Source: a virus (Duplodnaviria > Caudoviricetes). Taken from it: a stretch of DNA of 64,000 bases. Of the stretch, positions 6,411-54,353 are shown one piece after another (within the stretch, counting starts at the first letter, position 1; each line of letters opens with the position of its first letter). The stretch lies in the IMG/VR virus record IMGVR_UViG_3300022305_000561. The stretch is one strand, 5' to 3'. The position numbers were made by a program, and so were the translations under genes. The notes beneath the pieces are model-generated. The model searched no databases, was not told the DNA's origin, and saw nothing but the letters and a program-made list of their open reading frames with translations.

Positions 6411-9400
6411 CTATGCTGTTTTATTTATGGTTGGTAGAGTGATTGTGTCATACCAAACATCGCTACTTGGGGCAAGAGCTAAGTTGCCATAAAATGTAGC
6501 TATAGCAAAAGGATTAACATTTTCGACTCTTGAAGCAAACGGATTATTTATGTAGCTAACTTCTGTATATGGTAAGGTAATTATACCATCATTTGTCACA
6601 TAGTTGTTGGCAGTTCTTTCTGAATCTAACACATTAACTTCTGATAACAAGACAGACTCTTGATAGTGTGGAGGATACAACTCGCCCGATGAACTATTTA
6701 TAAAGCAATTATAATCAACATTAGCCACATCTCCTGTGCCGTGATCCGAAAAGGATTCAACAATAAAACCATTTTTATACATATCAACGCCATCTTGATC
6801 GGCAATTGACAAATTGGTTGTTTGTTGTTCAATTAAGGAGAGCGATACATAATATTCAAGGTTTGATATACGCTTATCGAGTTTAGCAATATCCTTCATT
6901 GTATATCTAGCATTAGATACTGGCGATAATACAACCGTTCTATTAACATCAGCACCATATGGATAGTTAGCTATGATATATAACAACATTGAGGTGTTAG
7001 GTATATTTGGTGGGATAGGTTTCAGCCCAGAAGTACCGTTCAATAATGTAATAGATTTATTAGGGTTAAGGACAACAACATCAACTCTAGGTAAGTAGTA
7101 TGAATAGTCAACATTGATGTTATATCCACTCTTCAAGATTCCAGCAGAGGCAGTATCAAATCCAATTCCGTTATCGTTCCTTACTGGTCTAAAATCTAAT
7201 GTGTCTCTTAATTTTGCTTCTATATTCCCATAAGGGATAGCGTTAGTATACGAATCTACATTAAAATAATCGCCTGCACCATGACTAAAGTATTCAAAAG
7301 AGATTCGGATAGAACCTATAATTTTAATCTCTGGATTAATTCTACTAATGTTACCTAAACCATAAATCAATCCAGTTTGACCAGAATCAAACCTAAATAA
7401 GTTTGTTATATCAACATTGGCTGGATTTGAAGAATTGATGGCACCAAAAGCATAGGCTTGTTTTACTGCTATTATTCTATAACAATCTGCCTTACCTAAT
7501 GATATATTAGACATAGTTGCAGCAGCAGAAGTTGTCATATCTATAGATAATATAGTTTTTGTTTTTGTTCTTGGTGAGGCAGTTTTAACAACAGCAGCAA
7601 ATACTGTATATGATGTTGATGGGGTAAGTCCATTAGCATATATTGAGGTATTGCTATTTACTGTATATGATGATGGAACTTGAACCGACCCTGAAGTATT
7701 ATTGACAAACATAAAGTTTGTGCTGTTGCTAGTTGGCTCAAAAGATTCGAAAGGATTAGTCAATGACATATCAACACGACCAGCAACGCTGCTTGTGATA
7801 TTACCTAAAGCTCTTGTAATATTATAACTTATGTCTATAGTAGCATCATCAGAACCTTTTACTGACCTGATGAACTTATTGGGTAAACCAACAACTGCAC
7901 TATTATTTACATTATTATTAACATTAGCACGAGTTACGACAGCAATACTAGCAGTTGTTGTCAATGAAGCGGAAATTGTAATAGAATTATTGCTTACTAT
8001 AGTCAAAACTTTGAAGTAATTGATACTATTAACTGTGATATAATCATTCACTGCCAATTCCGTTGCAAACAGAGTACCAATTCCTGTTACTGTAGTGCCA
8101 GCAGATGTAACTGATCCTGTGAGGGTAATATTGGCTGGAACTATATCACAAGTAAAATCAAGACCTGATGTGTTATTACAATATATCTGCTTTGCGTTTT
8201 TCTCGAATGTGTATCCTGAAAGCATAGCAATATCATAAACATACAATCTATAATTTGCAGAACCGCTGTCATGTTCTAACCATCTGACTGTAGCAGTACC
8301 AACCTTAGTTCCTACTGCTGTTCCGCCAGATACTGTATAATTATTATACAAATCAACTGATACAAAATCTGTCCCCAACCCTAATGGAGTTGAATACATA
8401 TTTCTAACTAATATGTAAGTGCCATCATATACATTAACAGTGACATTATTTGAACGGGAAAAATCTCTTGCTTTGGTATTTGATAATCTTAGGATACCTG
8501 TCTTTGTATATTCATATCCTTGAACAAAAGCAGAACCTTCTGATAACTCAACAACATATTTTGTGCTATCCCCATCAGGATATAATCCATTATTAATAAA
8601 AACAGATTCTGCATATTCCCACTTTGCAGTTCCATCTATAAATGGACTAGAAAATGTTGTAGTATATGAGGGAGAAGATGATCCAGAAGTTCCTGCTTGA
8701 ACGCACTTGTATCGATATATGATACCTCCAACAAGAGCATATACTACATCATCCATTTGATAAGGTGTGCTTGGCAACCTAATCCCTAAAGAATTCTTTC
8801 TATGTTCTCTCAATGCTGCATTGAAGTTTTTAACTATATAATCTCCAGACTCATCATAAGTTCTTTTAGCTAGAGTTACTTCTAATTCATTATATGAAGG
8901 CATATTCTGTGATATTATAACCTCACCAGAATTTATAGACAATAGTTCAACGAAATTGGCGGGTGGTGTAGTATAACTAACCATCTCAAAAGAAGTTGAT
9001 ATTGAATATCTATCTGCACCAGGAGCAGAATAGTTTGGAGTACCTTGAGCATTGTCTAATAAAGATTCGTCAGTAGTATATTCAATGATATTCTCAGCCC
9101 AAACTATACCAACCTTTGCTGTGGGTTGTAAAGATGATAAAGAACTAGAATTAACATACTTTGCCACAACTATATTAGTATATGCAACATCTACAAAATA
9201 TCCATTGATATAATAGATACCAGAACCTATAGAAGCAATAGATCCTTTACCAGTAGAATTTGTTGTTGATGCTAATACTTCATATATGGTTTCATTACCT
9301 GTGGCAATATTAGATATTGATTCACTATTTAGAAATACAGAACTTGTTGAGCCAGATGAAATATATCTTAGATATAATGTAATTGGGTCTGTGGCGGTGG

Positions 9401-9746
9401 ATGGTTCTGCGTGTATGACAACAGCAGTAACCCCTGAAGTAGCTCCCTTTACTACAGTTCCTTCTAATAAACTTGCAAAGCTTGCAACAGTATTAGATGA
9501 TGAGTTGGTATTTTGAATAGTTACATAAGACATATCATTATTAAACAATATGTTTCCTGGAACGACAACGGATCCTTCTTTAAATAGATGTTTGCCAATA
9601 CTATTTACTTGATTTTGTAAAATAGATTGAGTTTGATTCAACTCTCTAGTTTGGACAGAATAACCAGGTTTAAAAAGAACCTTTTGAAAATTCTTTGATG
9701 CTTCAAAATCATCATAGTAAGGTTCTACGTTAAAATTCATTGTCAT
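6411..9746 (-). CDS. Virion structural protein, N-terminal half of DUF4815/VrlC-like protein
   Basis: NFNVEPYYDDF...VLFKPGYSVQTRELNQ.Q, APGADRY, RTYDESGDY, RYTMKDIAKLDKRISNLEYY. Confidence 0.85.
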   Translation of the reverse strand: MTMNFNVEPYYDDFEASKNFQKVLFKPGYSVQTRELNQTQSILQNQVNSIGKHLFKEGSVVVPGNILFNNDMSYVTIQNTNSSSNTVASFASLLEGTVVKGATSGVTAVVIHAEPSTATDPITLYLRYISSGSTSSVFLNSESISNIATGNETIYEVLASTTNSTGKGSIASIGSGIYYINGYFVDVAYTNIVVAKYVNSSSLSSLQPTAKVGIVWAENIIEYTTDESLLDNAQGTPNYSAPGADRYSISTSFEMVSYTTPPANFVELLSINSGEVIISQNMPSYNELEVTLAKRTYDESGDYIVKNFNAALREHRKNSLGIRLPSTPYQMDDVVYALVGGIIYRYKCVQAGTSGSSSPSYTTTFSSPFIDGTAKWEYAESVFINNGLYPDGDSTKYVVELSEGSAFVQGYEYTKTGILRLSNTKARDFSRSNNVTVNVYDGTYILVRNMYSTPLGLGTDFVSVDLYNNYTVSGGTAVGTKVGTATVRWLEHDSGSANYRLYVYDIAMLSGYTFEKNAKQIYCNNTSGLDFTCDIVPANITLTGSVTSAGTTVTGIGTLFATELAVNDYITVNSINYFKVLTIVSNNSITISASLTTTASIAVVTRANVNNNVNNSAVVGLPNKFIRSVKGSDDATIDISYNITRALGNITSSVAGRVDMSLTNPFESFEPTSNSTNFMFVNNTSGSVQVPSSYTVNSNTSIYANGLTPSTSYTVFAAVVKTASPRTKTKTILSIDMTTSAAATMSNISLGKADCYRIIAVKQAYAFGAINSSNPANVDITNLFRFDSGQTGLIYGLGNISRINPEIKIIGSIRISFEYFSHGAGDYFNVDSYTNAIPYGNIEAKLRDTLDFRPVRNDNGIGFDTASAGILKSGYNINVDYSYYLPRVDVVVLNPNKSITLLNGTSGLKPIPPNIPNTSMLLYIIANYPYGADVNRTVVLSPVSNARYTMKDIAKLDKRISNLEYYVSLSLIEQQTTNLSIADQDGVDMYKNGFIVESFSDHGTGDVANVDYNCFINSSSGELYPPHYQESVLLSEVNVLDSERTANNYVTNDGIITLPYTEVSYINNPFASRVENVNPFAIATFYGNLALAPSSDVWYDTITLPTINKTA

Positions 9747-9783
9747 AACTTTATACTCTTATCATTATTGTTATAGTTATTTA

Positions 9784-11814
9784 TTAGAACTTCAAAACAG
9801 TCTGTAATGTGACTGTCTGATCATTCGTTTGATAGAACGCTGCTCTATTGTCAATATACAACATATCACCACTGTATTTGTCAATGGTTGGATTTGCTGC
9901 TGTATGTACTATAAATGATGTTGTGTTGTTTGATAGAACATTTCCAGATACTGGTGTACTGTTAGAGTTAGGTTGCAATAATATTTTTATATCTGTACCT
10001 AAAACAATAGTGGACGAGATTACAGTATAAGTATCTCCAAACTCATCAGTAAGTATCATATCATCAGTTACAGTACCATTTGATAAAATTCCCTGAACCA
10101 CAAAGCAAGCACTGCCTAATGCATTTGAATATGTTAGTTCAGAATCATATTCTTGTATATTTTTTATTATTCCAAACTGACGATAATCATTATTGAAAGA
10201 AAAACCAGATACATTGGTTCCAGTAATAGTACTATAAAACATTAAGGTATCTGCATGTAGTTCATGCAAGATATGTTTTCCATGTCCTTTGTGTGGTGGT
10301 ATTATTGCTCTAGCTGATGCAAGTTCTGTAGGTGTAGTAATAAGGGCTGTAATATTTACAGTAGCATAGGTATACCCAAATCCTCTATTAGTAATAGTTA
10401 TTTTATGTAACTTATTATTTACTATTTCAGCAGTTGCTGTAGCCCCTTCTCCGTCTCCAGTAATATTAATATTTGCTGCAGTATATCCATTTCCTTGGTC
10501 GCTAACATGGATATAATCTATAGCGCCACTAACAGCTAACAATTCTATGTTAGCCTGAACTGTATCTATATTTCCACCAGATGTAGATATTACTATCTGA
10601 GCTGGGGTATCGGAAATAGTATTACCATATGCAGTAGCCGTAGCGGATCTATATGAATGTCCAGCATTGTCAATAATTACGCCAGTAATTTGACCAGCAG
10701 CAACTATAGCAGATAACTGAGCTTCAACGCCAGTATCACTTTGTACTACTATAGTGGTATTGTTTACATTATAATTAATACCTGGATCATTAAGGATAAC
10801 GTGTGTAATAACTCCATTAACAATAACAGGCGTAATTATAGCAGTTGCATTACCAGTAAATTGTCCAGTACCAGTACCAACTACGGTTAGTGTGGCAGTT
10901 GCATATCCAGTTCCACCAGAAATAATGTCAACAGTTGTTATTTCACCATTTACTGTTGATATTCTAGGACTCAATACTGCACCAACTCCTTTAACATTTC
11001 CTGTACCTAGACCAGTTCCAACTATTGTAGGAATAATAGCAGACCCAACAATATAGGTTATTCCAGTTGTACCAGCAATGGTATTCCATTGGGTATTTGT
11101 GGTTGTACCTAAGGTATTAATAACATATTGTCTACCTACTACCAACGAACCCATTGCAGTTGTACCACTACTTATGGTGATAGATGCTGTAGTATTAGAA
11201 GGGTATCCAGTTCCAGTATTTACTATAGACACTGTATCTATAGCACCATTATTATAAAAACTGCTATTAATTGCAGTAGTAATAGGAATATATAAATTAT
11301 TTAAGAATTTTACCCTTAATGATAATGGGATATTCATAGCAAATTTCCACTTGTACCCATCAGAAGTAATGAATGGTAAGTCATTATATCCAGTAGGTTT
11401 AACAGTAGACAAACTATTCAGATTATTATCTAGACACAGGTAAAGATTATATTCATCGGTTAATACATAAAAACGTGCTGTATTAATACTAGAAGCTCCT
11501 GAATATGACAAATTATCTATGGCATAAGAATCATCGTATGTATCATATATTGATGAAGCTTGCCAATTTATTCTCGGCACAACAAAGCTAACATCATTAG
11601 AAGCTATTTCTTTTACTGATATAATATCTTTTCTTGTAGATAGTGCATACTTATATGTTGATAGTGGAGTTTCTATATGCTCTACGCCATTTAATATAGT
11701 ATAAGGAACTGTTTTACCTAAAAAGTAATAAAACTTAGAGGATTTTGAGACAATACTGCTATATACAGAATCTGCAATAGTATTATGCATCAATGATGTT
11801 ATTGCAATAGTCAT
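9784..11814 (-). CDS. gp8: Baseplate wedge protein gp8-like
   Basis: VVPRINW...YD.Y, FYVLTDEYNLYLCLDN, DGYKWKF, NDYRQFGIIKN, KYSGDMLYIDNR. Confidence 0.85.
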   Translation of the reverse strand: MTIAITSLMHNTIADSVYSSIVSKSSKFYYFLGKTVPYTILNGVEHIETPLSTYKYALSTRKDIISVKEIASNDVSFVVPRINWQASSIYDTYDDSYAIDNLSYSGASSINTARFYVLTDEYNLYLCLDNNLNSLSTVKPTGYNDLPFITSDGYKWKFAMNIPLSLRVKFLNNLYIPITTAINSSFYNNGAIDTVSIVNTGTGYPSNTTASITISSGTTAMGSLVVGRQYVINTLGTTTNTQWNTIAGTTGITYIVGSAIIPTIVGTGLGTGNVKGVGAVLSPRISTVNGEITTVDIISGGTGYATATLTVVGTGTGQFTGNATAIITPVIVNGVITHVILNDPGINYNVNNTTIVVQSDTGVEAQLSAIVAAGQITGVIIDNAGHSYRSATATAYGNTISDTPAQIVISTSGGNIDTVQANIELLAVSGAIDYIHVSDQGNGYTAANINITGDGEGATATAEIVNNKLHKITITNRGFGYTYATVNITALITTPTELASARAIIPPHKGHGKHILHELHADTLMFYSTITGTNVSGFSFNNDYRQFGIIKNIQEYDSELTYSNALGSACFVVQGILSNGTVTDDMILTDEFGDTYTVISSTIVLGTDIKILLQPNSNSTPVSGNVLSNNTTSFIVHTAANPTIDKYSGDMLYIDNRAAFYQTNDQTVTLQTVLKF

Positions 11815-29515: not shown

Positions 29516-29527
29516 GATTTATTTTTA

Positions 29528-29596
29528 TATAAATAGGTATAAGTCGCGATGTACCACCATCCACTTATTCTAAAACTATAACGGAGTATCAGCATG
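29528..29596 (+). ncRNA. Late promoter plus structured leader of a GIY-YIG endonuclease gene (copy A)
   Basis: TATAAATA, then ATAAGT-CGC-GATG-taccac-CATC-C-ACTTAT-TCTAA...GGAG...ATG; related copies at 43689-43765 and 31764-31856. Confidence 0.6.
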
Positions 29597-30202
29597 ACTA
29601 TTTATACAACATTTATCCCAGACCAATATTGCGTCTATCACACCACCTATTCTGGATCGCTGATGCCAGCGAACTATATTGGCTCAACATCAGTAGACAA
29701 TGTTCTCAATAAAAACTATCGTGGGTCTGTTGTTTCAAAAATCTATAAATCAATATGGAAATCTGAAATAAAACTGCATCCAGAACTATTCTCAACTGAT
29801 ATAGTATCATATCACGACACTAGATCCGATGCGACTTGGAAAGAACTTCAGGTACAGAGAACTCTAAATGTTGTCAAGAGCGATTTGTTCGTAAATAGAT
29901 CATATGCCACGGTAAATGGATTTCAAGATACAATATTTTCGCCAGAAGAACTCGCATCAAGAGGTAAGAACATATCAGATGCGCATGCCAATAGATCTCC
30001 AGAAGAAAAAGCAGCAACGAGTAAGAATCATTCTAATTCTTGGGATAACAAAACACCAGAAGAAAAAGCAGCATCCAGTAAGAAACATTCTGAGACTAAG
30101 GCTAAAAAGAAGGCAGAGTTAAATCTTCAACAAGCGAAGATTGCTCGAGAATTAGTTGTACTTTATCTTGAGGAAACTTTACAAATCTATCCAGTTTCTT
30201 AA
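29594..30202 (+). CDS. Freestanding GIY-YIG (Seg-like) homing endonuclease
   Basis: YCVYHT...NYIGS...YRGS...E motif; C-terminal SPEEKA repeats; inserted antisense between gp32 and gp59. Confidence 0.8.
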   Translation: MTIYTTFIPDQYCVYHTTYSGSLMPANYIGSTSVDNVLNKNYRGSVVSKIYKSIWKSEIKLHPELFSTDIVSYHDTRSDATWKELQVQRTLNVVKSDLFVNRSYATVNGFQDTIFSPEELASRGKNISDAHANRSPEEKAATSKNHSNSWDNKTPEEKAASSKKHSETKAKKKAELNLQQAKIARELVVLYLEETLQIYPVS

Positions 30203-32401: not shown

Positions 32402-32959
32402 TTCTTTTATCACATCGCATAATCCATACTGCAACGCTTCTGCTGGACTTAACCAGCAGTCATGCGCAGGAAGCAACACTTTCTTGATCTTATCTTCAGA
32501 CAAGTTGGTAAACTTCTTGTAATGACGTAGCAACATATCATTGGTTAAATCGAACGCCTTAGTAGTCGATACCAGCTCGTGATGCTTCCCAAAACTGGAC
32601 CATGAATATTGATGAGAAAGAATAGCAGTGTTTGGTGTTAATATTCTATTGCCTTTCATACCAGCCATAAAGATCATTAACCCAGCAGAAGCAATTTCTC
32701 CAATACCTATAGTTCTTACAGGAATTGCTGAACCTCTCATCACATCTATCAAAGCAAATCCAGAAGATAATGAACCACCGCCTGAACAAATCATCAGGTT
32801 CAATAACTCAGGTTTCTCTTCAGCAAAGTTTGAATCAATAATCCACTCTATAACACCCCTAATTGAATCATTATTGATATTATCCATCAAAAGATAAAAT
32901 GCCTGTTGCTCTTTGTTGCCTGCAATAGATTTATTGATTTGTGAAAACATATTAGCCAT
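32393..32959 (-). CDS. clpP: ClpP-family protease subunit
   Basis: ICSGGGS, IGEIASAG (Ser), ILSHQ (His), DCWLSPAEALQYGLCD (Asp). Confidence 0.9.
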   Translation of the reverse strand: MANMFSQINKSIAGNKEQQAFYLLMDNINNDSIRGVIEWIIDSNFAEEKPELLNLMICSGGGSLSSGFALIDVMRGSAIPVRTIGIGEIASAGLMIFMAGMKGNRILTPNTAILSHQYSWSSFGKHHELVSTTKAFDLTNDMLLRHYKKFTNLSEDKIKKVLLPAHDCWLSPAEALQYGLCDVIKELN

Positions 32960-32985
32960 ATTAATCCTTATATGAAAATAAACTT

Positions 32986-33062
32986 ATGTATTAAGATAAA
33001 AGCAATTGATCTACTTAACCCAACTACAGATATATTATAACGTGAAAATGAGTAAAAGTAAA
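32986..33062 (-). repeat. Early promoter plus ~50 nt leader, duplicated at 54257-54332
   Basis: atgtattaagataaa..gcaa.t.atctacttaacccaactacagatatattataac present at both loci. Confidence 0.8.
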
Positions 33063-33227
33063 GCTTTTCCGTAACTTATTGTTCAGTAACTTCTTTTAAA
33101 GAAATAAGTCGTTTTAAACGCATTTAAGAATATTAATAGGTAACTTTGTACGGGTATGGTATTTTAAGGAAGAAATGGTGTTTTAAGTTATTGATTTTAA
33201 TAGGGAATAAAGGCGAAATTTTAATCG

Positions 33228-38913: not shown

Positions 38914-39048
38914 AATATATTCTCTCTTTATTTAAATTATGAGTTATTATAATATGAATAGAACAAGAAGTAAAGCTTTATTTTAATTTATTTTCATATG
39001 GGTGTTTACACTTACTAATTTTAATAAATACAATCATAGGAGATAAAA

Positions 39049-43121: not shown

Positions 43122-43304
43122 TTAATGTTTCGTACACCAAGGTTTATCATTTCCTACCCAATCTTGAATATGTACACTCCAACACATCAATTTATTATAA
43201 GTTGGGTATAACCACTCACAATCAAGATAATCCATTAGGTAACTAACCCAGTCTCCAAGTATATATAATACCTCGCTCAAAATTCTTGCAAATATTTTTT
43301 TCAT
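43122..43304 (-). CDS. Hypothetical Trp-rich small protein
   Basis: ORF track; follows cyclase C-terminal part. Confidence 0.5.
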   Translation of the reverse strand: MKKIFARILSEVLYILGDWVSYLMDYLDCEWLYPTYNKLMCWSVHIQDWVGNDKPWCTKH

Positions 43305-43310
43305 AATATC

Positions 43311-43622
43311 CTACTTGCTTGTTGCCACAAATGTTCCATTCCAGTCTCTGGGCAGTTTCTTACTAAGTTCATAATCAGCAATTCGTTGTATCATCATATC
43401 ATAATAGTAATCTAACTCACCATCAAACGAACCTTTCAATGCTTCACATTCTAACGCAGCAGTTGTCCATTCTTGTCGGTTGTAATGCCATAACATCTTA
43501 TCGTGTATATTATCTCGCATCTCTTTAGCCAGAACCAAATTCTTAGGTTCTAATACTGTATAGATGTCTACACCTTCAGTTTTTCCTTTTACGGAAATCG
43601 TATCTAACTTTATTTCAAACAT
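43311..43622 (-). CDS. Adenylate cyclase C-terminal fragment (KGK motif + TPR-like helix)
   Basis: LDTISVKGKTEGVDIYT...Y..Q.W..A...P.DWNG.F.ATSK; own SD GAGGT. Confidence 0.85.
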   Translation of the reverse strand: MFEIKLDTISVKGKTEGVDIYTVLEPKNLVLAKEMRDNIHDKMLWHYNRQEWTTAALECEALKGSFDGELDYYYDMMIQRIADYELSKKLPRDWNGTFVATSK

Positions 43623-43666
43623 TGATTACCTCTTAGGTGTTGACCAAAGGCATTTATTGATATACC

Positions 43667-43765
43667 CTACGACAACATATACAATAAATAAATAGTCAAG
43701 CTGATACTCCGTTATAGTTTTAGAATAGGTGGGATGTAGGAATCCGCGACCTATAACTATTTATA
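43667..43765 (-). mobile_element. Remnant of a homing-endonuclease cassette (late promoter, structured leader, 10-codon stub) inside the cyclase gene
   Basis: 28-nt identity TATTCTAAAACTATAACGGAGTATCAGC with the 29528 leader, followed by TTGACTATTTAT (ATGACTATTTAT in copy A). Confidence 0.8.
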
Positions 43766-45512
43766 TAAATTCAGATCTCAACTTATCTATTGTATTTTTA
43801 CTTAATATTAATGATACACCATAATTTTTTGTTTGTCCCTCAAGTCTAGCAGCAAGATTAACTTCATCGCCTAGTATATCATAACTGAACCTATCTTTAG
43901 ACCCCATATTACCAACAAATACCGTTCCTGTACTGAGACCTGCTCCAACTTGTAAAGGTGGTTTACCTTCAGCAACCAATTCAATATTCAATTCTGCTAA
44001 TGCAACTTCCATTTCTTTTGCTGCCTTTAATGATTTAGTTGCCTGATTATCTACATCCAATGGGGCACCCCACCAAGCCATTATTGCATCGCCTATCAGC
44101 TTACCCACAGTACCATCATTATTCATTATTATTGGAAGCATCCTATCCATATATCTTGTAATAAGATTCGTCAATCCTTGAGGGTCAGTTTTATAATGTT
44201 CTGAAATAGTTGTAAATGACCTGATATCTGAAAAGTATATCGTCAGTTCTTTAGAATCTCCACCTAACTTCAACAGTTCTGGATTCTTCTGTAACTTTTC
44301 TACATAGTCAGGACTTAAGTATGTTCCAAACTGTTTCTTTATCTGGAGTTTTGCTTTAAGTTCTGTTAGGAATAAGGTGGCATATGTGTGTCCAAATACC
44401 GTTCCCACAGCGAGAATAGGTATTGTGATATCAAGAAGATAGTGGAAAGTATTAAATATACTGCTAGAGATAGGATAAAAAGAAAGTAAAATGCCACCGA
44501 TAATAAAGATTCCATACTTGACCCTTGCTATTAAGATTGATAAAATGCTAAGTATGACCATAGCAAGTATTTCTGCACCAGTACTCCAATCAGGTCTTGA
44601 TATATTAGTACCTGTTGTTAATGTATTTAGAACGGATGCTTGAAGATGATGTGGAAAGACAGAGCCGTTAGCAGTGGCGACTGGGTTGTTGAGTCCTCTT
44701 GCAGATAATCCAACAATGACGATACTGGAGTTAAAGGACTCTGGAAGGTGGCTTGCTGAATATTCTGTAAATGTTGCTGGCTTAACCCATATCCTACCGA
44801 TACTGTCTGTTTGAATCTTTCCGAACTTTGGGATTCTGACGGCTTCAATAGAATCATCATTGACTTTGACTTGAAAGGAAGGGTCTCCTGAAGCGACCCG
44901 CAATGTTTCAAGACTGATACTGGGGTACAATAGTCCGTTGGAATTGACCACCATTGGGATTCTTCGGGTAACGCCATCAATTTCTGGGAGTGTATTAACA
45001 ACACCAACACCAGCAGCAGTATCATTAAACTCTTGTATGTTTGGCTGAATGTTACCATATTTCACTCCGATAGATTTAGCATCACCACCAATAACGGATA
45101 CGCCTGGACGAAATGCTGCATACTTATCTGAAAAATATGAATCGTCTATTGCTGTTTGTGGTAGAACTACTGGATATTCTTTTAATGTGTTAGTAAAATT
45201 ATTGTCGTATCCTGCTCTATCCACATCTAGAAGAAAAATATTAAAAACAACCAAGCCAGCGTTGAGATCATAAAGGTTTTTAATAAGAGCTGAATATTCG
45301 TTGCGAGGAAAAGGAAATTGACCTTTTTGAGAAATTGTTTCATCATCTATGTTCACCAATACTATGTCTGAATGTTGTATATCTTGTGTAAGAAGAGTAT
45401 CAAAATATCTTAATCTGATACTCTCTACAAAAGTTGGGTCTAATACCCTTATCCCTACAATAAGTGATAATGTAATTAATGCACACCAGCGGGATAAGAG
45501 TATTTTTTTCAT
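43761..45512 (-). CDS. CHASE2-domain class III adenylate cyclase, N-terminal and main catalytic part
   Basis: IV.V.IDD..I...GQ.PFPR, DGV.RR.P (CHASE2); TM helices; FSDIRSFT, K.IGDAIM, GNMGS..RF.Y...GD.VNLAARLE. Confidence 0.92.
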   Translation of the reverse strand: MKKILLSRWCALITLSLIVGIRVLDPTFVESIRLRYFDTLLTQDIQHSDIVLVNIDDETISQKGQFPFPRNEYSALIKNLYDLNAGLVVFNIFLLDVDRAGYDNNFTNTLKEYPVVLPQTAIDDSYFSDKYAAFRPGVSVIGGDAKSIGVKYGNIQPNIQEFNDTAAGVGVVNTLPEIDGVTRRIPMVVNSNGLLYPSISLETLRVASGDPSFQVKVNDDSIEAVRIPKFGKIQTDSIGRIWVKPATFTEYSASHLPESFNSSIVIVGLSARGLNNPVATANGSVFPHHLQASVLNTLTTGTNISRPDWSTGAEILAMVILSILSILIARVKYGIFIIGGILLSFYPISSSIFNTFHYLLDITIPILAVGTVFGHTYATLFLTELKAKLQIKKQFGTYLSPDYVEKLQKNPELLKLGGDSKELTIYFSDIRSFTTISEHYKTDPQGLTNLITRYMDRMLPIIMNNDGTVGKLIGDAIMAWWGAPLDVDNQATKSLKAAKEMEVALAELNIELVAEGKPPLQVGAGLSTGTVFVGNMGSKDRFSYDILGDEVNLAARLEGQTKNYGVSLILSKNTIDKLRSEFI

Positions 45513-47405: not shown

Positions 47406-47590
47406 CACGCCCACCTAGCCCAAAATTGGTTTGAATTAATCGCTACTCGTTGTTTGTTGTGACATATCCGTAGTTTCTAACAAAATCATCATATCCTTTA
47501 TTAGCTTTCTTTCCTTACTCATTTTCACACTTCCCAATTACTTAATTTATAAGTTATTATACTACATATTCTGATAAAGTAAAGATATAT

Positions 47591-52703: not shown

Positions 52704-52777
52704 AATATATTTTCTCTCTTTATTTAAAGTATGAGTTATTATATTATGAATGAACCAAGAAGTAAAGGTTTATTTTA

Positions 52778-53572
52778 TTATATTTCAAAATATTTCAATT
52801 CAAAAGTATCAGCAATCTTCTCATAGTTTATATACCCTCTAGGATTACATAATACCCTAGTTTCACCAATCATATAATCGTGGGCAGAATGTGTATGTCC
52901 ATGAAGCCAGACCTTTATCTGAGGTCTATCAATAATGAACTGGTCAAGGTTTGAATGATATCCACCATTCATAAGTCTATCTTCAGCATAATCCTCATGA
53001 ACACTTTGAAAACTTGGAGAGTGATGCCCAACGACAACAAACTTACCCTCTTTCTCAACAGTATCCCATATTAGGCTTAACATCTTACGATGTTCTAATA
53101 CAGCATCGTTAGGAGTAAACCTTGCCCCATCTTTCCATATGATTCTAAAGTCATTCATCCGAGTCTTCATAAACTCTTTTGTTACAGGGTCTTCACCATT
53201 CATATCAGACCAAAGAGTACCGCATATAAAGGCAGTGTCTTCGATTGTAATGACTTCTTTATCTAATATATGCAGGTTTGGGATATAGCCAAGATGTTCT
53301 CTTAGGGTATTAAGAGTTAAGTTGAATCCATAATTATAATGTTCGTGGTTGCCCATAATGTATATGACAGTTTCAAACTTAGAAGCACAATCAGAAAAGA
53401 AGTTATGAATACGTTGACTTCTAAAGAAACCAATATCATCTTTATTAAGTTCATCTAAATCCCTGACAGTGCAAATATCACCAGCAAGGATCAATACCTC
53501 AGCATCTTCTGCGTTGTCAAGAACAATCTTACCTATTTCCAAATGTAAATCTGAGCAGTAAGCAATCCTCAT
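52778..53572 (-). CDS. Metallophosphoesterase (calcineurin-like)
   Basis: SDLHLE, LAGDI, GNHEHY, HH.P, HGHTH, NPRGY. Confidence 0.92.
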   Translation of the reverse strand: MRIAYCSDLHLEIGKIVLDNAEDAEVLILAGDICTVRDLDELNKDDIGFFRSQRIHNFFSDCASKFETVIYIMGNHEHYNYGFNLTLNTLREHLGYIPNLHILDKEVITIEDTAFICGTLWSDMNGEDPVTKEFMKTRMNDFRIIWKDGARFTPNDAVLEHRKMLSLIWDTVEKEGKFVVVGHHSPSFQSVHEDYAEDRLMNGGYHSNLDQFIIDRPQIKVWLHGHTHSAHDYMIGETRVLCNPRGYINYEKIADTFELKYFEI

Positions 53573-53994: not shown

Positions 53995-54230
53995 AATTCC
54001 ACCACCATAGGTGTCACCACTATTTCAATATGAGCTTGTTTGAGGACTTCACAATCATCTTCATTGACACATTTTCCAGGAGATGAAGGCATATTACCTT
54101 CAGGTATAATGATATATTCAATACCATCAACATTAGATTCTTTAGTAGCCCAATACTCATTACCAATGCAGTTAGCGTACCAGAATGTTTCTCTTTCAGC
54201 GTTTATTATTCTTATTCTAAAACCTTTCAT
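53991..54230 (-). CDS. Hypothetical protein
   Basis: WY...IG.E motif; downstream of the duplicated leader. Confidence 0.55.
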   Translation of the reverse strand: MKGFRIRIINAERETFWYANCIGNEYWATKESNVDGIEYIIIPEGNMPSSPGKCVNEDDCEVLKQAHIEIVVTPMVVEL

Positions 54231-54353
54231 ATTGACTCCTCATTTAAACATAATGTATGTATTAAGATAAAGCAACTAATCTACTTAACCCAACTACAGA
54301 TATATTATAACTCATAAATCAGTAAAAGTAAAGACTTTAGACATAAAAAAACC

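Follow-up and report, generated by a model that had tools for sequence, protein, structure and literature searches.

The stretch of DNA analysed here, referred to as the window, comprises 64,000 nucleotides (nt) of a virus (Duplodnaviria; Caudoviricetes; IMG/VR record IMGVR_UViG_3300022305_000561). We focused on a class III adenylate cyclase gene that is present in it as two separate open reading frames (ORFs), with what its sequence marks as the relic of a homing endonuclease cassette between them. All features of the split locus lie on the minus strand of the window, and their positions are listed in Table 1. The large ORF matched CHASE2 (E 5e-35) and PF00211 (Guanylate_cyc; 64.7 bits against a gathering cut-off of 21.9, amino acids (aa) 421–578) in Pfam, and covered only positions 7–155 of the 183 positions of the PF00211 profile. 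The remaining positions 156–183, including the strand-KGK-strand segment, were located on the separate 103-aa ORF, so that the catalytic domain is not on one polypeptide; searched alone, the 103-aa ORF gave no Pfam match. Its N-terminus reads MFEIKLDTISVKGK from the ATG at 43622, and its helical C-terminal domain of ~75 aa ends in ...ATSK, as across the whole family. In the large ORF, D429 (FSDIRSFT), K471 and D475 (GKLIGDAIM), D545 (SYDILGD), and N552 and R556 (VNLAARLE) were invariant among 16 aligned split forms. We take D429 and D475 to be the metal-binding Asp pair, K471 and D545 the substrate-specifying residues, and N552 and R556 the transition-state Asn-xxx-Arg pair. The FSDIRSFT and IGDAIM motifs aligned with the matching motifs of the solved cyclase 6fht.

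An earlier reading of this DNA, made from the letters alone (the sequence-only reading), had placed the cyclase stop codon inside an inserted late promoter, a new Shine-Dalgarno (SD) sequence and ATG about 140 nt further on, and the KGK motif in the small fragment, and we found all three. The large ORF ends in ...KLRSEFI followed by TAA at 43763–43761, and this stop codon falls within TATAAATA at 43765–43758, the sole TATAAATA of the region. The SD sequence AAGAGGT and the ATG come after a gap of 138 nt (43760–43623), and the KGK turn lies in the 103-aa ORF.

Table 1. Positions of the split cyclase ORFs, the insert between them and the paralogous cassette in the window
Feature	Position	Strand	Description
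Large cyclase ORF	43761..45512	-	583 aa; CHASE2 sensor (aa 14-326), then a transmembrane region and a catalytic domain of class III cyclase type
TATAAATA	43758..43765	-	T4-type late-promoter motif of the endonuclease cassette
Leader hairpin	43725..43754	-	Stem ATAGGT/ACCTAT, CGC/C internal loop, inner stem GGAT/ATCC; fully paired in the relic
Endonuclease SD and dead stub	43667..43710	-	GGAG 43710-43707; 10 codons LTIYLLYMLS, then TAG
Probable endonuclease 3' end	43610..43666	-	GISINAFGQHLRGNQCLK then TAA, in the stub frame; overlaps the small-ORF start
SD AAGAGGT of the small ORF	43628..43634	-	5 nt ahead of ATG 43622; read from sequence
Small cyclase ORF	43311..43622	-	103 aa; final two catalytic-domain strands including the KGK turn, then helical domain
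Paralogous cassette adjoining gene 32	29524..30202	+	Leader 29524-29593; intact 202-aa homing-endonuclease-like ORF 29594..30202

Both ORFs were run by tblastn against 175 related loci from IMG/VR and the Joint Genome Institute (JGI) metagenomes. The results showed that in 154 of them (counted over 167 loci) the residue matching residue 582 of the large ORF runs in frame, with no intervening stop, into residues 2–5 of the small ORF, which bears out the proposal that the joined parts form one contiguous cyclase. Unsplit relatives are ~668 to 689 aa long, and compared with the unsplit L002 (684 aa), only I583 and the initiator M1 are extra in the 583 + 103 aa of the window. Two extra residues leave no room for intein halves, and the junction ends of both ORFs carried no extra sequence for split-intein halves. 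Rfam gave no match, introns included, in 43200–44000. The nearest named phages by protein were Pelagibacter phage HTVC008M (36%) and the Methylophilales Melnitz phages (34%), in which the gene is unsplit; the locus had no megablast match among GenBank phages. In the metagenome scan, relatives were at most 69% identical among the matches listed, and a search of IMG/VR with the small-ORF alignment returned unsplit genes only. The identical 103-aa ORF was found on four contigs, and a 583-aa ORF with an identical tail on a second JGI contig. In the protein index, the contig to which the window belongs has a length of ~140 kb.

The insert was compared with the rest of the window. About 83 nt of it (43775–43693) matched 29524–29606, with 95.6% identity over 45 nt and 92% over 25 nt, and two sub-patterns of this leader each occurred exactly twice in the window against 0.00–0.01 expected by chance. 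The matched segment consists of the leader and the first codons of an endonuclease-like ORF, whose 202-aa product matched phrog_10820 (E 9e-24) and phrog_314 (E 5e-17) and gave no Pfam match. The insert had been described from sequence alone as a copy of this endonuclease leader plus a 10-codon stub. The leader and stub stand, supported by the 83-nt match; that description left the last 57 nt unexplained, and these look like the 3' end of an endonuclease gene. The stub starts with TTG, the corresponding codon in the paralogue and in the related locus L004 being ATG, and its LTIYLLY... resembles the family N-terminus MTIYLY.... Read in the stub frame, the last 57 nt give GISINAFGQHLRGNQCLK, ~18 codons, which resemble family C-termini such as ...NFKRHLKGANC... 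of P0138 at a modest level (best score 33, reached by 11 of 300 shuffles). The small-ORF SD sequence AAGAGGT lies inside this 3' coding relic, where it is read as codons L-R-G. Two members of the endonuclease family, P0136 and P0137, end in ...CLK, which is the overlap-frame reading of ATG TTT GAA ATA A, the start (MFEIK) of the small ORF; P0137 and P0127, a small ORF that starts MFEIK, share the same longest contig (45,038 nt). The last 57 nt are thus probably the C-terminal end of the endonuclease gene, and by its sequence the insert as a whole is an endonuclease gene that lost its interior by deletion and was then further disabled. The 3' 60 nt had no DNA match in any of the fetched loci, and an exact-match search of IMG/VR did not return the leader.

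The leader carries a hairpin, and the fold of 43685–43764 had a z-score of -2.4. We compared the hairpin with copies at 29539–29568 of the window, at L003 7746 and 213, at L004 7746 and in L088. Pairing was kept through sequence change in both the outer stem (ATAGGT/ACCTAT, GTAGAT/ATCTAC and ATAAGT/ACTTAT) and the inner stem (GGAT/ATCC, GATA/TATC and GATG/CATC). Pairing is also possible between the promoter segment and the opening codons of the endonuclease gene. In the L088 copy (TAAATA motif from 4321, minus strand), the inner stem GGAT/GTCC forms a U-G wobble on the sense strand and would give an A-C mismatch on the antisense strand. The 202-aa ORF of the paralogous cassette contains a tandem 57-nt repeat (77% identical) at 29990–30103; the ...PEEKAA.SKKHS... 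that it encodes twice may be a repeated DNA-binding module.

Related loci showed the same site with the cassette intact. L003 (sequence identical to L006 and L009) and L004 share the split codon of the window and carry an intact gene in a gap of 0.9–1.0 kb: in L003 a 303-aa NUMOD3 protein (phrog_314), in L004 a 254-aa protein (phrog_12324). In both, the TAA of TATAAATA ends the upstream half (GTA TAA ATA in L003, ATA TAA ATA in L004) and the hairpin follows. Because L003 and L004 carry an intact endonuclease at the same codon behind the same leader, we trace the split of the window to a homing-endonuclease cassette. The same truncation point was found in 19 of the 120 best protein clusters, with the tails ...SENV, ...SEFI, ...YENI and ...SKSV. 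Stand-alone small ORFs formed eight clusters, 54–100% identical to that of the window, of which seven start MFEIK; seven end in ...ATSK and one in ...AKSK. Two unsplit loci, L008 (on the contig of L001; 5225–5270) and L007 (7737–7783), have 11–15 extra residues exactly at the split site. The DNA of the 11 extra residues in L008 is homologous to the SD/ATG leader of the small ORF in L003 and L004, so that L008 is an in-frame re-fusion that followed loss of the endonuclease. A second site was seen in L005 (2915–3861), where the same cyclase family is split in the membrane region, between residues 330 and 349, by a 234-aa NUMOD3 endonuclease gene on the opposite strand.

A quick IQ-TREE phylogeny of the catalytic segment placed all 20 split rows in one clade with a Shimodaira–Hasegawa-like approximate likelihood ratio (SH-aLRT) support of 98. 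The split state required two state changes on this tree, and equal clustering was obtained in none of 500 label shuffles. The clade sits on a long stem branch; its only unsplit row is the re-fused L008 (P0004), the sister of the window, and L007, unsplit with a related loop, is the sister of the whole clade. Selection was compared mainly between L003 and L004, both split and with the endonuclease gene intact. In this pair, the proportion of synonymous differences (pS) in the catalytic part of the large ORF was 0.69, near saturation, with a ratio of nonsynonymous to synonymous substitution rates (dN/dS) of 0.05. The small ORF gave a dN/dS of 0.18 (dS 0.95) and the endonuclease gene 0.76. The ratio of nonsynonymous to synonymous differences (pN/pS) in the split pair was 0.14 in the catalytic part and 0.29 in the C-terminal part, compared to 0.18 and 0.47 in 40 unsplit pairs of similar divergence. 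As the values of the split pair are no higher than those of the unsplit pairs, the split state shows no relaxation of selection. For the catalytic part of the window itself, dN/dS was 0.07 against L003 and 0.05 against L008. On this sequence evidence, the split form is old and common in related phages, and purifying selection acts on each half no less strongly than on unsplit genes. Recent transfer was considered as the cause of the high catalytic-domain identity among split types and was rejected, since synonymous sites are near saturated (pS 0.67–0.76).

Conservation was scored over columns that have the same state in at least 95% of unsplit genes (138 unsplit genes for the catalytic part). 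The window keeps 124 of 136 such columns in the large ORF and 14 of 15 in the small ORF. Ten of the 12 changed columns in the large ORF are common to the window, L003 and L004, and are thus clade-specific states and not private decay. The split-clade substitutions (window 44252–43779, minus strand) include G441K, V444P, M451I, N452T, F508L, M522V, N527S and G571S. These 10–12 clade-wide changes at conserved positions may reflect adaptation to the split state or a functional shift.

The position of the break was mapped on an AlphaFold2 model of the unsplit L002 (residue 395 to the end), which had a predicted local distance difference test score (pLDDT) of 86.7 and matched P. aeruginosa CyaB (3r5g) with a template modelling (TM) score of 0.90 and a root-mean-square deviation of 1.6 Å. 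In this model the break falls in the loop between the helix at 178–184 and the strand at 189–196, and the segment corresponding to the small ORF supplies the last strand-turn-strand with the KGK turn, followed by a four-helix C-terminal domain. The model of the re-fused L008 had a pLDDT of 86.6, and its 11 extra residues form a disordered surface loop (pLDDT below 50 at 191–195), which suggests that the split site tolerates an inserted loop. The family profile matched 57 solved cyclase sequences (best E 3e-46). The solved class III cyclases CyaB (3r5g), Spirulina CyaC (1wc1) and the phytochrome-cyclase fusion 6fht have the same fold and match the profile through the strand-KGK-strand segment, but each is a single chain across the segment that is split in the window. 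Beyond what these enzymes contain, the phage family has an N-terminal CHASE2 sensor and the helical C-terminal domain.

The arrangement resembles known split phage genes. In Aeromonas phage Aeh1, nrdA-a along with mobE and nrdA-b forms a gene in pieces (Friedrich et al. 2007) whose two chains combine to give an active enzyme (Crona et al. 2011, PMC3045599). The likeness to this case, drawn by the sequence-only reading, fits; in L003 and L004 an intact endonuclease gene lies between the halves. In both systems a free-standing endonuclease has entered the gene for an enzyme of a T4-like phage, at a point between secondary-structure elements in the catalytic core, the active-site residues are on two separately translated chains with no intron or intein, and the downstream half begins within the endonuclease gene. 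The systems differ in the host gene, which is a CHASE2 class III adenylate cyclase here and a ribonucleotide reductase in Aeh1, and in the endonuclease, which belongs to the MTIYLY.../NUMOD3 family in the cyclase and to the HNH mobE family in Aeh1. In the window, unlike Aeh1, deletion has left a 138-nt relic of the endonuclease ORF. Function was demonstrated for Aeh1, whereas the cyclase of the window is known here from its sequence.

A second parallel is provided by the 'fractured genes' of marine phage metagenomes, described in part of Dassa et al. (2009, PMC2677866) as having an endonuclease leader with a hairpin and TATAAATA. The window and its relatives carry such a leader and, like the loci treated there, belong to uncultured T4-like marine and freshwater phages. 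At one locus in that account, gp41-7, the endonuclease is lost and the hairpin is kept upstream of the C-terminal part, and the cassette of the window is likewise without an endonuclease and has its hairpin ahead of the C-terminal part. Unlike the fractured genes of that account, which are rejoined by split inteins, the window has no intein halves. The hosts named for hairpin loci in that part of the paper are gp41, IMPDH, DnaE and NrdJ as well as NrdA, and cyclases are not among them (PMC2677866). The same source mentions that the gp43 DNA polymerase of Aeromonas phage 25 is split by a GIY-YIG endonuclease gene (Petrov and Karam, cited in PMC2677866). That polymerase and the product of T4 genes 39 and 60 are essential phage enzymes that are likewise encoded as two pieces beside mobile endonuclease genes and without an intein, the enzymes being different. 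The locus of the window is a further example of this already known type of split phage gene (Aeh1 nrdA; Dassa et al. 2009). A search of the literature on phage CHASE2 cyclases returned nothing relevant.

These observations are best explained by the following history. A homing endonuclease gene, free-standing and belonging to the MTIYLY.../NUMOD3 family (PHROG 314 / 12324), would have inserted into the catalytic domain of the CHASE2 class III cyclase, in the loop ahead of the last strand-turn-strand. The TATAAATA of the cassette would have given the upstream half its stop codon, and the 3' end of the cassette would have given the downstream half its SD sequence and ATG. In the lineage of the window, the endonuclease gene presumably died by internal deletion, together with the ATG-to-TTG change and the TAG, and left a remnant composed of the leader (late-promoter motif, covarying hairpin and SD sequence), 10 N-terminal codons and ~18 C-terminal codons. 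The cyclase would then be made from one operon as two polypeptides of 583 and 103 aa, with neither intein nor intron. The 103-aa chain most likely docks non-covalently on the truncated catalytic domain, where its beta-hairpin would complete the sheet and bring in the KGK phosphate-binding turn, with the helical domain packed alongside; such docking would restore an active dimeric cyclase.

We consider it probable that the split cyclase is a working two-chain enzyme, because the split forms make up one old clade, both halves are under purifying selection and the break lies in a surface loop. For the two-chain cyclase put forward by the sequence-only reading, these three points speak in favour; the layout of the locus, the source of the insert and the selection on its halves are shown by the sequences, and assembly and activity are what we infer from them. 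Several observations weigh in the opposite direction. At sites with a conservation of 95% or more among unsplit genes, the split clade shares 10–12 changes, and these could have altered or abolished catalysis. In a small three-way comparison, the small-ORF branch of the window had nine unique residue changes against 10 unique synonymous codons, compared to 1/4 and 1/5 in two unsplit relatives; five of the nine lie in a junction-proximal tract that resembles the split-clade allele. The catalytic segment adjoins the endonuclease, so a co-conversion tract is expected in homing, and a single clade of this segment alone is therefore no proof of vertical descent in the split state. In addition, the Aeh1 halves have element-derived tails that are essential for assembly, whereas the cyclase of the window gains two residues only. 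A more far-reaching version holds that the split clade is a long-lived natural two-chain cyclase that works by beta-hairpin complementation without intein or tails, that its clade-specific changes are adaptations for assembly, and that the leader has been reused so as to time or dose the small chain; taken together, we regard these claims as unlikely.

The cyclase in the phage of the window could instead be dead or dying, inactivated by the split or by the subsequent loss of the endonuclease, with its ORFs intact only because there has been too little time for decay. We judge this rather doubtful, but several facts agree with it: the exact relic was studied in a single DNA copy, the small-ORF branch has somewhat more unique residue changes than its unsplit relatives, and without assembly of the chains the catalytic domain is missing two strands and the KGK turn. 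Against decay, both ORFs are intact and keep nearly all conserved columns (124/136 and 14/15), with 10 of the 12 changes common to L003 and L004, and the split clade is old, with strong purifying selection. Exactly the SD sequence and ATG of the small ORF escaped the deletion, and the identical ORF recurs on four contigs. In the sister lineage L008 the halves have been rejoined in frame, an argument that selection still acts on the whole protein.

Expression of the small half was considered next to the two-chain enzyme. Both halves lie in one minus-strand gene row or operon, and no terminator-like site was seen between them. The leader hairpin does not cover the small-ORF SD sequence. Since the small ORF has its own strong SD sequence in the same operon without a terminator, it is translatable from the mRNA of the large ORF; further transcripts may arise late from the inherited promoter. 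The suggestion that this promoter gates cyclic AMP (cAMP) synthesis to late infection was therefore not supported, as the two halves share one operon without a terminator-like site, the small ORF has its own SD sequence, and the promoter was inherited from the cassette.

A related proposal, that the relic has been reused for regulation, with the late promoter and hairpin timing or dosing the small chain so that active cyclase forms only late, seems to us decidedly improbable. It would account for the retention of TATAAATA, of a fully paired hairpin and of the pairing between promoter and stub although the endonuclease ORF is dead. However, the youth of the relic can explain the retained motifs, a small ORF with its own SD sequence in a shared operon needs no promoter of its own, and the hairpin leaves that SD sequence uncovered. 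Moreover, TATAAATA is only mildly enriched in the window (17 found against 10.3 expected).

In phage T4, topoisomerase genes 39 and 60 encode a split enzyme beside a mobile endonuclease gene, and gene 60 also uses translational bypassing. Production of a single polypeptide from the window by ribosomal bypassing, RNA splicing or stop-codon read-through appears highly improbable. The large ORF ends in ATA-TAA and codon 4 of the small ORF is ATA; the ORFs share one frame, and the 141 nt that separate them contain only two in-frame stops. However, an ATA-to-ATA hop would span ~150 nt, roughly threefold the gap in T4 gene 60, and ATA codons are common in a genome as AT-rich as this one. Gene 60 has a gap of ~50 nt and a take-off codon within a stem-loop, and neither is found in the window, where the take-off codon is outside the hairpin, which begins 11 nt beyond it. 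The bypass product would also fall three residues short of the unsplit L002. In relatives that share the split codon, a whole endonuclease gene occupies the gap of 0.9–1.0 kb, and the junction codons are different. On the strength of the relatives' gap and the position of the hairpin, we rejected bypassing, which had been listed as an alternative from sequence alone. Splicing, also raised there, was rejected because 43200–44000 had no Rfam match, and a group I or II core would not fit into 138 nt; read-through would have to pass two TAA codons and is implausible. The caveat that the split might be an assembly artefact or chimeric contig, prompted by a metagenomic assembly in which the insert repeats sequence from elsewhere in the same genome, was not borne out and is now extremely unlikely, since the same 103-aa ORF recurs on four independent contigs and the same-tail 583-aa ORF on another JGI contig, 19 homologue clusters stop at the same position, and the repeat is only ~90% identical to its paralogue, with compensatory hairpin changes of its own.

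The locus adds a signalling enzyme to the phage genes that still work, or at least remain under selection, after being split by an endonuclease; to our knowledge, the known phage cases of such splits are almost all replication and nucleotide-metabolism genes. Related phages show the stages side by side: uninvaded genes, genes with an intact endonuclease, the deleted endonuclease of the window, and in-frame re-fusion with a linker. CHASE2 cyclases are widespread in relatives of the HTVC008M and Melnitz phages and have been a repeated endonuclease target, at two or more sites. If the two chains assemble, the break would be a natural split site in the class III cyclase fold and a candidate for fragment-complementation reporters.

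Upstream of the cyclase, the best sigma-70-like site was at 47583–47556, which belongs to a promoter-like repeat family with 8–10 copies in the window. Copies of ~50–80 nt occur within 35951–63341 (for example 38915–38993, 52707–52785 and 47538–47589) and read, on the minus strand, CTTTAC, a spacer of ~17 nt and TATAAT. Judged by this sequence they are probably early promoters, and by analogy they are possibly mobile promoter cassettes like those of T4-type phages. An intergenic segment of ~110 nt is present in two copies (32957–33068 and 54228–54338; 87% identical over 70 nt), and both copies end in the promoter-like motif AAGTAAAG. In L003, the split cyclase is followed immediately downstream by a full-length GroEL-like chaperonin gene (539 aa; 9025–10644, minus strand). 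In L001 (5819–5950) and L002 (1617–1760), the next gene upstream of the cyclase showed a weak match to the helical domain of the small ORF, with 29–32% identity over ~45 aa.

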